Shown here: one piece after another, positions 1,664 to 63,288 of the stretch
How the letters are laid out: each line of letters begins with the position of its first letter
Position numbering within the stretch: position 1 is the first letter of the stretch
Virus record (IMG/VR): IMGVR_UViG_3300029305_003072
Source: a virus
Lineage: Duplodnaviria; Heunggongvirae; Uroviricota; Caudoviricetes
DNA length: 64,000 nucleotides
Strand: one strand, 5' to 3'
The notes under the pieces: model-generated
The model's input: the letters and a program-made list of their open reading frames with translations, nothing else
Database searches by the model: none
Told to the model about the DNA's origin: nothing
Translations under genes and position numbers: made by a program

Positions 1664-2233
1664 TTACTTTTGTCCTTGAGCGAATCTGCGTCCGCTCTGG
1701 ACCAAAATCTCCTTGACGTTGTCTTCTAAGTCGCCTTCAGTATTGTTGATAAGACCGATATAACTAAAATCAATATCTTCAAAATCATTGTAATCAGCCT
1801 AAAAACGTCTTACAACTTCTCTAACGTCAGGGTCTTCTTCTCTGTTTAACTGGCGCAATAAACGAATCTTGTCATTGGTTTGAATCCAAAAGACAATTAC
1901 ATCACAATCCGGACGAGCCAAGAGAGACTCAACGCCTGTGGGATTGAATACGCCAATATTGATTACTCCATCGCTGCGGACGGAGTCATAGCTGGTGCCA
2001 TAGAACCAGTCGTTGAAAACGGTACACTCTAGCATCTCTCCATCAAGAACTTTCTATCCAAATTTTTCTGGAGTATAATAAAAATAATTGACACCATGTG
2101 CCTCACCCTAGCGCATAGGGCGAGTGGTACAGCTAATAATTTCATGGAGGTCAGGGTTGGCTTCTATTACCGCCTACATTGTACGGTCTTTGCCAGACCC
2201 AGCTTCGCCCATTAAGGCAATAATTTTGTACAT
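1664..2233 (-). CDS. Guanylate/nucleoside-monophosphate kinase-like protein, 189 aa, with 4 in-frame TAG codons
   Basis: P-loop GEAGSGKD and a TTRPMR*GEAHGVNYFYY block matching the GMP-kinase signature TTRxPRxGExxGxxY. Reading through the TAGs at 2170-2172, 2101-2103, 2047-2049 and 1799-1801 joins ORF 1799..2035 to its upstream and downstream pieces in one frame. Confidence 0.6.
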
Positions 2234-2457
2234 ATGTCAACTTCCTCCTCAAATTCGTATTCTAATTTGCCGGGAAGTTCACCCTCCCAGAATGTTGCAT
2301 GACCATCGCAATCGGGATTCTCACACTTATAAGGATATTGTGCTGGATAAGTAGTGAGACAAATGCCAGTGGGGATTAACTCCCCACCGCACTTATCACA
2401 AATTGCTCTGGTTGTATAAATATTTTTTACCTTATATCGTTTAAGCATCTTCCTCAA
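2212..2457 (-). CDS. Zn-ribbon protein, 81 aa
   Basis: CDKCGG...CENPDCDG cysteine pairs. Confidence 0.4.
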   Translation of the reverse strand: MRKMLKRYKVKNIYTTRAICDKCGGELIPTGICLTTYPAQYPYKCENPDCDGHATFWEGELPGKLEYEFEEEVDICTKLLP

Positions 2458-5400
2458 TGCCTCCTTGATAACGAGAGTCTTTCAAAATCAATTCTCCATT
2501 AGGAAGAACTGCATCAATTTTATATAGCTGGTGACCGCCCGTAGAAGCATATTTCTTAGACACGAAATCATCACCAGAACGAATACCAGTAACCACAATC
2601 ATATTTCCACGATTAAACCAGGATTTCTCCATAATCTTCTTCGTACCATCTGCTTGACGCTCAGAAATCTGCTTATCAAACATTGTGAAATATTCTTTTC
2701 TAAACTTGACATTTACAACACCTGTTGTAGTCAAAATAGTTACCGTACTCTTTGTCTTATTCTTTGCAATGCAAGTGCCGCAGATACGATTCAGTTTAAA
2801 GATATGAATATCTTTGCCACCCTTTGTAAAAGTCTTTTCAATTACTGGGTCTTCTGGTAGACTATAAAAGTCTACAAAACCATATCTATCATTATTGATA
2901 TGCTCCAACTCATGCTCGTGATAATAGAAACATAATACTTCCATTTCCCATGCGGAAATAGTTCCTTTAGCATATTTCTCCCAATCTTGCATAAAGATTT
3001 CAGTATTTAAAGCATCCAAGATAGCTTCCTTATCAGAGGCAATCCACTTTCTAAATACATCCATATGCTTCTGGTAGATATTATCCCAAGCCTTGGTTTT
3101 TACATACCAAGATAAGTTATCTGTTTCCATAATATCATCACATTCAATTTCATGTAAGAACGCAATCGCTCTTTCATCAAGACTATACATTCCTGCATAT
3201 GTATACTTATCAGCTTTTGTAATTGCTTTTAAGTATCTGTTGAACTCATATACTCTACGAGCCATAATCTGTTCAGGAGTCTTTTCAGGCAGAAGATTAT
3301 GTCTAATTAAACCACCCATATTCTGCAAAGTGATTCGACTCTTCTTATCACAAGTCTCCCAAATATACCAGGCCATAGTAAACTTTCTATCTTCCATACT
3401 ATCAAAGGCTCCACCCTTGATTAGAGAAATCATAGCTTGCTTACCAGGTTTAACCTTATTCAAGAAGTCCTTGGGTGAACTATATGGTCTATTCGCAATG
3501 ATTGCCGCAACCACATCATCACCTACATTTAACATACCCTTTAGACCGAATAGAATTCGATTGTTTTCAACATCGGGAGCGAAACCGAACTTAGACTTAT
3601 TAATGTCAGCTAAACTAACCTTAATGCCGGCGGCTTGGATGTCTCCAATCGCCTTTGCAATCTTACCATAATCGGTTGCCGCAGTTCTACGAATTTTCGC
3701 AGACTTATCGGGCAAGTCAATAAACTTAACTCCCTCTGCTAAATCTTGTGCTTCTGGAGCATAAATATCTACAATCTCTTCTTCACTATTATCTTCCAAA
3801 GAACCACTGTTAACAATCAAACAAGCAGTATTCCAATAAATTGGATTGAAATTAATAACGAAATAAATAGACTGAATACCTACGAATGAGTAAGGTAGAG
3901 AGTGGTTCAAGCTAAATGCATAACCCAACTGAGGTGCAATCGCATTCTCCCAGAAATAGTTTGCCACTCGAACGTCATCAAAGTTTCCATATACCTGCTC
4001 ACGCAATTGAGGAATCTTACTCATTTGTTTCTTACCAACAATCTTTCTTGCATTGTTAGCTTCACCCAGAGTGAAACTAGCTACATCCATTAGAAGTTCC
4101 ATCATCTGCTCCTGGAGAGCGCAACATCCCCAATACTGGTCACAATGCTTATGCATTAATGCTTTTTGTTCGGGAGTGAAGTTTGCTTTATCCATTTCTC
4201 GGTCGAAAACATCCAAACCTTGATGCTGAATACGAACATATCTATCCTGTTGAGACTCTTTATCTTTTTCAGACATAAGTCTCATCATAGCGTTCGCCGC
4301 AGTCATCTCCATAGGATTTTGAGGCTTTAATTTCTTCGCAATTGCCAAGCCGACGCCAGTACTGAACTGGAATACATCCAACACATCACCGGCCGCAAGA
4401 TGGTCCCAAATGCGTTGGTCGCTTGTATCAATCACTTCTGGATGAATATACTTATTATAAAGGTCACGCAGACCCATTTTTTCAATTACATTATCTTCAA
4501 CAAGTAACTCAAAACATTTGATAATCTTATCAGAAATTTCAGTTACCAGGAAGTCATACTTGGTATCACCGGCGGCCTCAGCCTTATGCAGGTCATAACA
4601 AGTAATTAAATCTCCACTTGGAGTTCTCATAAAACTTGCAGTTTCAAATGGGTCATCACCATATAGAATGACACCAGATGCGTGAGAGGAACGCTTATTA
4701 ACCAATCCTTCAATGGACATAATAATATCCAACAAACCAGGATAGTTGTTTACCTCACGTATGAACGGAGCCACGGGTCGTCTGTCTTTTTCTTCGTTTC
4801 CATAGACGACATCATTGATTGACCAAAGGAATCCTCGTTCCTGTGGCACCAGTGAAGACATGTATTGTGCGAGGTCGACATCGATTCCATCTGGGTAATC
4901 CTCGCTTCTATAACCGCGGCAAGCCGTGAGTATAGCTGATTTCGTACCCTCTGTTCCGAAGGTTGCAACCTGGACCAAACCAAGTTCTCCACGTTCTCTT
5001 CGAATTGCGTCAAAGATTGCGGGTCGCTTTGATGGTGCAAGGTCAATGTCGATGTCGGGCAATTCGGCTCTTTCCTTGTTAAGGAAACGCCAATAAGGTA
5101 AGCCCCATCTAACTGGGTCGAGCTGGGTAATGCCCAAGAGGTAGTTAGACAGAAATCCTGTGGCCGAGCCTCGACCTGGGCCAACAATTGAGCCACATTC
5201 CCAGAATAGGTCGATATAGTGTTTGAAGGTGTTAAAATAGGCGAACAAGCAGTCATCTAATTTCTCTCCAATATCTTTAATAACATCAGCCTCAGTCTCA
5301 AGACGAGTTAAGTATTCATCATATAATAATAAACCTTTTTCCTCTAAAGACTTTAGACACTCATTTATCCAATAACGCTCTTGAATATTATCGCTAGTTA

Positions 5401-62629: not shown

Positions 62630-63058
62630 TTATTCCTCCCGAATCTTAAAAGGACACCAATCGGGCACGGGAGGCATTTCGCTATCATACTCAATGTATC
62701 CAGTGATTTTGCGAGGTCCATTGGAAGTCTGACAGGCATTACAGTAGTAATCAAAAGCGAATCCAGCTCTTGGAGTGCGAGTTTCCTTAACACAAGGACA
62801 TTCGTCGCATCGGCCAACGCCGATTACTACCATTGCGGCAGGCTCGAAAGAATGGTCGGAACAGTGACCCTTATCGCACTTGTATCCTTCAACATCGCAC
62901 TTTTTCAGTTTACAATAAATTTTATTGCTATCCTCATAAGGAACACAATGCTTACACAGGACTCCTCTTTTCATAACCATCTTCCTTTCTATTCTTTGTA
63001 TATATATTATATCATATTTTTTATAAAAAATCAATAAACAAAAAAAAGGCAGACTCAT
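62630..63058 (-). CDS. Cys-rich Zn-binding protein
   Basis: Multiple CxxC and CxC pairs. A promoter and terminator cassette sits upstream. Confidence 0.35.
   Translation of the reverse strand: MSLPFFCLLIFYKKYDIIYIQRIERKMVMKRGVLCKHCVPYEDSNKIYCKLKKCDVEGYKCDKGHCSDHSFEPAAMVVIGVGRCDECPCVKETRTPRAGFAFDYYCNACQTSNGPRKITGYIEYDSEMPPVPDWCPFKIREE
63006..63034 (-). promoter_or_regulatory. Promoter cassette
   Basis: Conserved cassette with hairpin 63048-63070. Confidence 0.65.
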
Positions 63059-63070
63059 TAAGAGTCTGCC
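63038..63070 (-). terminator. Rho-independent terminator
   Basis: Stem ggcagactc/gagtctgcc followed by an 8-T run. Confidence 0.65.
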
Positions 63071-63288
63071 TTAATATAATTGTCTGCATTAACAATAAAA
63101 TCAATCATGTCCTTTGCTAAAATTTCTTTTTGTTCTAAAGAAATATCTGGTATTGGCATAGACAATATAACCTAATAATCTAGAATGTTTTTGCGAGGAG
63201 GGTAAAATGATAAAAATCCAAGTGTTACATCTCCATCTAGTGATTCCGCTCGGTAAATTACTTCTGGATTGTTGTCATATAATAACAT
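63058..63288 (-). CDS. Small protein, 76 aa, with one in-frame TAG
   Basis: ATG at 63288 with an AGGAG RBS 7 nt upstream. TAG at 63172-63174. TAA at 63058-63060 lies inside the terminator hairpin. Confidence 0.3.

Follow-up and report, generated by a model that had tools for sequence, protein, structure and literature searches.

Phages that use genetic code 15 have reportedly been known since 2014, from the work of Ivanova. Reading of the stop codon TAG as glutamine (Gln) was described bioinformatically in gut phages of the crAss-like, Lak, Agate, Jade, Sapphire and similar clades (10.1101/2021.08.26.457843), and code 15 was confirmed by (meta)proteomics by Peters et al. (PMC9523058). The phAss-1 or proposed Phassvirus group, described in 2023, consists of 130-138-kb phages with tandem suppressor transfer RNAs (tRNAs) (PMC10607447), and NCBI files phAss-1 (OQ749652) under 'Caudoviricetes code 15 clade'. 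Here we analysed a 64,000-nucleotide stretch of DNA from a virus of the Caudoviricetes (IMG/VR record IMGVR_UViG_3300029305_003072), hereafter the window. An initial annotation had proposed that TAG is read as Gln in this DNA, in the manner of code 15. This proposal was supported by Gln-dominated alignment columns, a tenfold enrichment of Gln in a reciprocal test, BLOSUM62 scores and two tRNA(CUA) genes lying beyond the window edge. Judged from sequence comparison, the probability that TAG is read as Gln (translation table 15) by means of phage suppressor tRNAs is approximately 0.9.

The window contains 24 in-frame TAG codons in 12 genes, all on the minus strand (Table 1). Ten of these genes, with 22 TAG codons, had been named in the initial annotation, and all were present on the minus strand where it had placed them; a metallophosphoesterase gene and a gene for a Cys-rich small protein were added. 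The genes were compared with their relatives, which were 120 related loci from three IMG/VR scans, located on contigs of ~100-200 kb and with protein identities from 96% down to ~45%. The comparison showed that at least 11 genes use TAG as a sense codon in frame. Matches to the Guanylate_kin, DHFR_1, DHH, PhoH and GIY-YIG domains continued uninterrupted across TAG, as expected from the earlier claim that reading through TAG yields domain-coherent proteins.

Six of the window TAG codons were located in columns dominated by Q. In the PIN-PhoH ATPase, the PhoH match (residues 217-411) crosses the TAG codon at amino acid (aa) 370, which aligns to the Q of GDITQVD in PDB 3b85 and corresponds to CAA or CAG in 12 of 12 relatives; the relatives L003 and L005 have PhoH TAG codons of their own at positions where the window encodes Gln. 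In the RecJ-like exonuclease, the DHH match covers residues 71-215, aa75 is Q in 35 relatives and TAG in 22, and the gene bears TAG in 39 of 42 recoded relatives. The aa75 column is H or Y in cellular RecJ, and aa50, the other TAG position, is A, K, S or G in the relatives. Two of the nine TAG codons of the GIY-YIG gene fall inside the GIY-YIG domain (residues 242-322), where aa258 is Q in 53 relatives and TAG in 17, and aa268 is Q in 40. The TAG codon at aa12 of the YorH-like protein is CAG in the closest relative and Q in 15 relatives, and aa101 of the hypothetical gene 34224..34652 is Q (CAA or CAG) in 7 of 10 relatives, with an alignment that runs to the C-terminus. The initial annotation had placed two TAG codons on an invariant Gln, in the strings GDCKT*VD (PhoH) and VISR*PRG (dihydrofolate reductase, DHFR). 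Both strings were correct, and a family-wide invariant Gln was confirmed for PhoH only. The DHFR column is variable, with S/N/Q/S in solved structures (PDB) and K/G/T/N in phage relatives, and in cellular homologues the columns of DHFR, guanylate kinase and RecJ are not Gln. The broader claim that TAG falls on conserved Gln therefore held for the six columns described above and failed for DHFR, guanylate kinase and RecJ aa50, which are variable.

The remaining genes were assessed by homology across TAG or by the structure of the reading frame. All four TAG codons of the guanylate-kinase-like gene lie within the Guanylate_kin match (residues 3-176), and the gene call on identical DNA in ENA is a full 189-aa guanylate kinase. 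The TAG columns in this protein are polar and variable in relatives and PDB homologues (K/N/Q, E/K/Q and E/K/R/Q, with K/E/P/R/A in solved structures). Homology of gene 7974..8432 crosses its TAG in five relatives, which have N or E there, and its orthologues are rich in TAG (14 per 1000 codons). In the small membrane protein gene the TAG is kept in the closest relative, and the differences downstream of it are mostly synonymous and include an indel that preserves the frame, therefore the tail is coding. In the Cys-rich gene, AAGGAG precedes the ATG at 60003 by 8 nt, the start overlaps the stop of the upstream gene in an ATGA, and homology to the relative L086, in which the corresponding codon is TTT, spans the TAG. 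The 76-aa gene 63058..63288 is the weakest of the 12. A good Shine-Dalgarno sequence precedes the ATG at 63288, the downstream ATG at 63159 has none, and no homologues were found in the related contigs; the call of this gene is a weak one, based on continuity of the open reading frame (ORF) and on the fact that its downstream half has no ribosome-binding site. Several other candidates were rejected. The TAG codons in 46368-47246 (aa6) and 53082-53306 (aa3) precede better start codons, that in 61238-61756 (aa38) falls in the overlap with the upstream gene, and the TAG in ORF 1029-1271 belongs to a shadow ORF within nrdD.

The genes of the window end in TAA (59) or TGA (21) and never in TAG, as the initial annotation had indicated, and none requires TAG as a terminator. 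The metallophosphoesterase adds a qualification. Orthologues in L089, L094 and L117 have true stops exactly at the position of the window TAG, yet a conserved tail (SYKRDxPDGGYYG) follows: the gene reads on in L088, L090 and L092, with a tail homologous to the window sequence downstream of TAG (SYKRDAPDGGYYG). The TAG thus lies at a domain boundary, where it could switch the product from a short to a long isoform according to the strength of suppression. Standard-code gene calls from JGI that end in TAG were all N-terminal fragments of interrupted genes, and in ENA, where identical DNA is deposited, the gene calls crossed 15 TAG codons and never ended in TAG. With TAG as sense, the coding fraction rose from 0.869 to 0.902 in a homology-weighted gene set; the gain is small because the window is a TAG-poor part of the genome. 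The homology-weighted set was chosen over naive stop-to-stop ORF totals, which were non-discriminating as a test of the code, since shadow ORFs merge and the totals grow even more when TGA or TAA, rather than TAG, is taken as sense. In standard-code relatives, TAG is the terminator at 7% of orthologous gene ends, a figure that matches the published idea that TAG stops are lost before recoding (10.1101/2021.08.26.457843).

To identify the amino acid inserted at TAG, the in-frame stops of the relatives were mapped onto the window genes. Alignments of the relatives to the window genes contained 671 TAG, 20 TGA and 6 TAA codons in frame. Fourteen of the TGA codons, and a single TAG, belong to L083 (IMGVR_UViG_3300028797_002738), which is 48% identical in a 367-aa query protein; six of these TGA codons align to Trp, and L083 is therefore a TGA-recoded sister lineage. 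Another 35 loci have no in-frame TAG. The TAG codons of the relatives fall on 215 distinct window positions, 65 of which are Gln, or 10.0 times the number expected (binomial p = 1.6e-45). Glu (2.1x), Lys (1.4x) and Arg (1.35x) were enriched less, and Ser (0.57x), Leu (0.36x) and Tyr (0.30x) were depleted; the descending order of Gln, Glu and Lys is that expected if TAG encodes Gln. Summed BLOSUM62 scores of the relatives' TAG codons on window residues also favoured Gln (359) over Glu (267). TAG positions were kept across relatives of 60-96% identity.

The initial annotation had reported no suppressor tRNA, and no tRNA genes of any kind were found in the 64-kb window. It had suggested searching elsewhere in the genome for a tRNA with a CUA anticodon, and two were found ~7 kb beyond the right edge. 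The JGI contig L121 is 100% identical to window positions 59834-64000, extends 9 kb past that edge and carries a cluster of ten tRNA genes on the same strand as the protein-coding genes. Two tandem tRNA(CUA) genes in this cluster, sup1 and sup2, scored 47.1 and 54.2 bits on the Rfam tRNA model (threshold 29). Gln identity depends on a weak U1-A72 pair, the acceptor stem, the discriminator base and U35, and a pair of the U1-A72 type is required by GluRS2, the glutamyl-tRNA synthetase specific for tRNA-Gln, and by the amidotransferase (PMC9976931). Sup1 has U1.C72, G2-C71, G3-C70 and G73, and sup2 has U1-A72, G2-C71, G3-C70 and G73, so that by sequence both carry predicted Gln-type acceptor stems. 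The anticodon loop of both is CUCUAAA, from which G36 is absent by definition; an equivalent of G36 is present in the variable-arm loop of sup2. Phage tRNA(CUA) have been reported as substrates of the Escherichia coli glutaminyl-tRNA synthetase, GlnRS (PMC12636597), and tRNA(CUA) genes were also present in more distant relatives of the window. Pairwise identity of the suppressors to other tRNAs was uninformative (0.71-0.78 to everything).

TAG is a minor Gln codon in the window, with 24-28 occurrences against 249 CAA and 333 CAG, and its use is uneven. The upstream half of the leftward gene array (34834-64000), which is presumably transcribed earlier, has 3 TAG in 8622 codons, compared with 21 in 10686 codons in 1-34652 (Fisher p = 0.0015). 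Genes between the tRNA cluster and the window contain no TAG. Past the left edge lie three more genes with 1-3 TAG codons each. The adjoining convergent module, as read in contigs that are ~88% related and whose neighbouring gene, the query, has 92% identity, contains large, repeat-rich, tail-fibre-like ORFs with 7-9 TAG codons each; PHROGs assigned no function to the TAG-rich large proteins of this module. In the GIY-YIG gene, 9 of the 19 Gln codons (47%) are TAG, compared with 19 of 591 in the other genes (Fisher p = 1.6e-8). This core gene was present in 69 loci, and its orthologues are rich in TAG in 39 of 42 recoded relatives. At the other extreme, the genes for DnaE, the ligase LigA and the two topoisomerase subunits were free of TAG, in agreement with the initial annotation, from which the topoisomerase labels were taken rather than from a domain scan. 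DnaE orthologues in recoded relatives have 0.21 TAG per 1000 codons, and the ligase and topoisomerase genes are essentially TAG-free across the clade. Borges et al. found that replication genes are variably and late genes heavily recoded and that the families with the strongest bias include a nuclease and a membrane protein (10.1101/2021.08.26.457843), and the pattern observed here appears similar.

We infer from this distribution that TAG may serve as a timing device. The tRNA cluster would head the leftward array, of which the first ~29 kb is almost free of TAG, with density rising downstream; under the published model, early genes would be readable in the host code and later genes would need the suppressor. 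The host is probably a Clostridia-class Firmicute with the standard code, in which case the phage suppressor tRNAs would have to compete with host release factor 1 (RF1). The TAG-rich GIY-YIG nuclease, which is potentially toxic, would stay untranslated until the suppressors were active, and the TAG at the phosphoesterase boundary could give first a short form and later a long one.

Several observations weigh against the reading of TAG as Gln by way of phage suppressors. Contig L121 comes from another sample and is tied to the window only by the 4.2-kb identical overlap. Over the window's own 22 alignable TAG columns, the summed BLOSUM62 lead of Gln over Glu is narrow (25.5 versus 22.0), and several of these codons correspond to K, N, E or even F in relatives, at columns that are polar and variable. 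The difference in TAG density between the two halves of the array is not significant once the GIY-YIG gene is left out (p = 0.066). Finally, the genome-contig scan matched only phage-sized contigs binned into Firmicute metagenome-assembled genomes and gave no firm host. These points were considered together with three rival explanations, the most serious of which is that TAG remains mainly a stop and that the suppressors provide partial, regulated read-through, either at a low level or to yield two isoforms. TAG makes up only ~4% of Gln codons in the module, the phosphoesterase TAG coincides with the position at which orthologues naturally stop, RF1 of the host is presumably present, and Borges et al. 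describe incomplete use of the alternative code, all of which would fit. Such a scheme is nonetheless unlikely, because TAG codons interrupt catalytic domains in guanylate kinase (four times), in RecJ before motif I, in the GDxxQ of PhoH and in DHFR, where a truncated product would be useless; nine TAG codons in one gene would leave essentially no product unless suppression were efficient, and no gene ends in TAG.

That TAG encodes Glu, Lys, Ser or pyrrolysine instead of Gln, or is read ambiguously through the two suppressors, is considerably less probable still. ARAGORN labels CUA tRNAs 'Pyl', although by default, Glu ranks second in the column scores, and the long variable arm of sup2 resembles a feature used by seryl-tRNA synthetase (SerRS), which recognizes the long variable arm of its tRNA. 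The enrichment of Gln far exceeds that of Glu and Lys, relatives have CAA or CAG at the conserved columns, and the acceptor stems of both suppressors appear Gln-type. For pyrrolysine in particular, no PylS-like or other aminoacyl-tRNA synthetase, no release factor and no Pyl genes were found among the window proteins scanned, and the suppressors fold as ordinary cloverleaves at 47-54 bits on the Rfam tRNA model. The third alternative, that the TAG codons are inactivating mutations in pseudogenes or errors of sequencing or assembly, could draw on the fragmentation of the TAG genes in the standard-code JGI calls and is effectively refuted. The same TAG codons occur in at least four independent assemblies, among them contigs L125 to L128, which exact-protein look-ups identified and which match the window at 99.99-100% identity across as much as 16.4 kb; this answers the concern about assembly error that the initial annotation had itself raised. 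Moreover, TAG positions are conserved in relatives, the genes are interrupted by TAG and almost never by TAA or TGA, and changes downstream of TAG are mostly synonymous with indels in frame. Reading as Gln thus accounts best for the TAG codons of the window.

The most consequential lead from this work is the architecture of the suppressor tRNAs. The variable arm of sup2 forms a 5-bp stem (CACGG/CCGUG) with a 7-nt loop, CUCUGAC, and looks like an anticodon stem-loop with the Gln anticodon CUG; this mimic hairpin adjoins the real anticodon loop CUCUAAA. A pattern scan of IMG/VR that specified only a CUA anticodon stem-loop and a T-loop returned 117 loci with 125 tRNA(CUA). Loci with tandem or long tRNA(CUA) were L121, L147 (2522-2687, Phass-1) and L148-L264. 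The lengths were bimodal, with 84 tRNAs at 72-80 nt and 41 at 85-98 nt, and pairs of a 75-nt and a 91-nt gene 3 nt apart were recurrent. Among the 31 unique long tRNA(CUA), 23 had U[CU]UGA at the apex of the variable arm, and in 17 a 7-nt loop N-U-Y-U-G-R-N was closed by at least 3 bp. The mimic hairpins comprised eight different stems and four loops (CUCUGAA, CUUUGAA, UUCUGAG and CUCUGAC), all of which are Gln anticodon loops. Across all loci in hand, the looser motif U[CU]UG[AG] was present in 24 of 32 unique long tRNA(CUA) versus 3 of 119 other long-arm tRNAs (Leu 1/47, Ser 1/41, Tyr 1/11, others 0/20). In 21 aligned long suppressors, three inner variable-arm pairs covary (one pair was CG in 12, GC in 6 and UG in 2), and pair 1-72 is U-A or mismatched in nearly all.

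A parallel was observed in opal suppressors, tRNA(UCA), collected from IMG/VR loci L265-L384. UCCAA, which corresponds to U33, the Trp anticodon CCA and A37, was located at the variable-arm apex of 9 of 14 unique long tRNA(UCA), and several of these have Trp-like AGGGG acceptor stems; some long UCA tRNAs could be Sec-like. By eye, in the printed sequences, UCCAA was found in none of the long CUA tRNAs and U[CU]UGA in none of the long UCA tRNAs. All of these counts come from samples that are pattern-selected and phylogenetically related. With a Gln loop in the CUA arms and a Trp loop in the UCA arms, the extra arm therefore appears to copy the anticodon loop of the amino acid that is inserted. 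We tentatively propose that these tRNAs are an undescribed class of suppressor with two anticodon arms, in which the variable arm might serve as a surrogate identity element for class I synthetases, namely for GlnRS (or for ND-GluRS, a GluRS of the non-discriminating type, with GatCAB) and for tryptophanyl-tRNA synthetase (TrpRS), since GlnRS and TrpRS depend on an anticodon that is mutated here to read a stop. The positions of TAG might in that case time the translation of certain genes, which here would be those of the GIY-YIG nuclease and the phosphoesterase isoform. Charging by way of the mimic would possibly involve alternative stacking of the two hairpins, and a duplicated anticodon arm may be the origin of the mimic. 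A literature search for a variable-arm anticodon mimic in suppressor tRNAs, in which subscription journals were mostly outside coverage, found no description.

The tRNA region of L121 contained further features. A partial match to the OLE RNA family lies within the cluster. Expanded variable arms were also observed in tRNA-Cys(GCA) of L121, L087 and L091, with a total length of 80-86 nt and, in L121, the arm loop UUCAAU. The interval from the tRNA cluster to the window holds an EcoRI-methylase-like gene and a GmrSD_N/HNH gene, both TAG-free.

The window has a GC content of 41%, and on the homology-weighted map its real genes are densely packed and essentially all on the minus strand; plus-strand ORFs, some longer than 500 aa, were rejected as shadows of minus-strand genes. 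It represents the module for replication, nucleotide metabolism and auxiliary functions in a phage of ~130 kb, and no structural genes, terminase included, were found in it. Further annotated products include a PIF1-like helicase, a lysozyme-like protein, DnaB, a YorF-like protein, AAA_24, thymidylate synthase, an NAD-dependent ligase and phosphoesterases. The DnaE-type polymerase is 38% identical to polymerases of SPbeta-like phages, Enterococcus phages and phage Phass-1, and megablast of 9.5 kb of the window against 50,697 GenBank phage records gave no match. By protein similarity, the phage is a distant relative of the SPbeta-like phages and of the phAss-1 group.

Located within the window is a complete-looking cluster for salvage and biosynthesis of nicotinamide adenine dinucleotide (NAD), which may counter NAD-depleting host defences. 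Two proteins unusual in phage, one with a Major-Vault-Protein shoulder and repeat domains and one similar to SPFH/flotillin, had no PHROG match. A set of tRNA-repair-like genes that includes several metallophosphoesterases adjoins the tRNA cluster, and an endolysin-like multidomain protein (peptidase, lysozyme and amidase) is encoded inside the replication module. The endolysin-like gene has no TAG in the window, and its orthologues in recoded relatives have 6.5 per 1000 codons.

Table 1. Features of the window and of the overlapping contig L121. Coordinates are those of the window unless marked L121.
Feature	Coordinates	Strand	In-frame TAG	Remarks
nrdD				truncated by left edge of window
Guanylate-kinase-like, 189 aa	1664..2233	-	4: 2174-2176, 2108-2110, 2054-2056, 1799-1801	
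DnaE-type DNA polymerase, 1320 aa	2441..6403	-	0	
Hypothetical	7974..8432	-	1: 8298-8300	AGGAG before ATG at 8432
RecJ-like DHH exonuclease	9423..11168	-	2: 11019-11021, 10944-10946	Pfam DHH, DHHA1, RecJ_OB
YorH-like Zn-finger protein	14565..15224	-	1: 15189-15191	PF26927 Phage_SPbeta_YorH recorded on identical gene
Dihydrofolate reductase	17696..18193	-	1: 17996-17998	Pfam DHFR_1 residues 1-163, E = 1.6e-43
Membrane-anchored coiled-coil protein, C-terminal GIY-YIG nuclease domain	19376..20368	-	9: 20225-7, 20219-21, 20114-6, 19985-7, 19949-51, 19916-8, 19802-4, 19595-7, 19565-7	
Endolysin-like multidomain protein, 777 aa	30283-32616		0	
PIN-PhoH ATPase	32692..33942	-	1: 32833-32835	Pfam PIN_4 and PhoH
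Small membrane protein, 84 aa	33926..34180	-	1: 34028-34030	
Hypothetical, 142 aa	34224..34652	-	1: 34350-34352	
Upstream half of leftward array	34834..64000	-	nearly TAG-free	SPFH, NAD cluster, vault-like, RNA ligase, sigma factor, Thg1, nucleotidyltransferase
SPFH/flotillin-like protein, 502 aa	34834-36342			
Metallophosphoesterase	36845..37558	-	1: 36971-36973	absent from initial annotation; PHROG phosphoesterase
NAD cluster	39503-47996			
Cytidylyltransferase-like	39503-40081			NAD cluster
AAA_28	40468-40995			NAD cluster
NADAR	40996-41511			NAD cluster
NAD synthase	41524-42330			NAD cluster
NAMPT	42839-44386			NAD cluster
SIR2	45054-45827			NAD cluster
PRTase	46368-47228			NAD cluster
Isochorismatase/nicotinamidase	47406-47996			NAD cluster
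Major-Vault-Protein shoulder protein, 838 aa	48089-50605			
tRNA-repair-like gene set	51348-60887			
RNA ligase	51348-52766			tRNA-repair-like set
Sigma factor	54596-55516			
Thg1-like tRNA-His guanylyltransferase	55979-56869			tRNA-repair-like set
Cys-rich small protein, 141 aa	59578..60003	-	1: 59953-59955	absent from initial annotation
Nucleotidyltransferase	60000-60887			tRNA-repair-like set
Small gene, 76 aa	63058..63288	-	1: 63172-63174	
sup1 tRNA(CUA), 75 nt	L121 2043-2117			
sup2 tRNA(CUA), 97 nt	L121 2118-2214			
OLE RNA, partial match	L121 3889-3972			RF01071, model 439-592; 53.5 bits, gathering score 50
tRNA-Cys(GCA)	L121 5256-5341			expanded variable arm
EcoRI-methylase-like gene and GmrSD_N/HNH gene	L121 5645-8073		0	

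For annotation, these results indicate that this family of contigs needs translation table 15, as a dozen genes would otherwise be fragmented in the window alone. The more than 100 related contigs, in which standard-code, TAG-recoded and TGA-recoded lineages stand side by side, are useful for the study of code switching over short distances, and the GIY-YIG nuclease and the phosphoesterase isoform boundary are candidate targets of code-dependent timing. If the variable-arm mimic does enable charging, it would explain how the code is changed in a standard-code host without a phage-borne synthetase, and it would offer a design principle for engineered suppressor tRNAs.

Compared with the alternatively coded gut phages, the window phage is similar in its in-frame TAG codons on Gln, its phage tRNA(CUA), its preference for TAA stops and its low GC content. 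Recoding likewise appears sparse and variable in replication genes and denser in large structural-like genes, and some sister lineages use the standard code or, in the case of L083, recode TGA. Among the most TAG-biased genes here are those for a nuclease and a membrane protein, as in Agate, where they are an intron endonuclease and a transmembrane protein. In contrast to those phages, neither release factor 2 nor a synthetase was seen in the window, and the most TAG-biased gene is the core, membrane-anchored GIY-YIG gene of the replication module rather than a gene of a lysis cassette. The resemblance to phAss-1 extends to an SPbeta-like replication core (DnaE, PIF1-like helicase, RecJ, YorF, AAA_24 and a GIY-YIG domain), a genome of ~130-136 kb, TAG read as Gln, predicted Clostridia hosts, and a large tRNA cluster in which tandem short and long tRNA(CUA) lie next to tRNA-Leu(UAA). 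However, the two differ in gene order around the tRNAs and in source, which is the human gut for phAss-1 and appears to be of the herbivore-gut or rumen type here. They share no nucleotide similarity and their common core proteins are only 26-38% identical; the window phage is therefore not a Phassvirus.

Similar to the classical amber suppressors derived from tRNA-Gln, such as E. coli supE, the suppressors described here are CUA tRNAs with a weak 1-72 pair, G2-C71, G3-C70 and G73, and U35, which GlnRS recognizes, is kept as in the supE type (PMC9976931). Unlike supE, they are phage-encoded and in tandem, and the hairpin in the variable arm of sup2 (20-27 nt), with a loop that copies the Gln anticodon loop, occurs in no classical suppressor. 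The recoding itself is already well described, and the window adds a new lineage to the alternatively coded phages.

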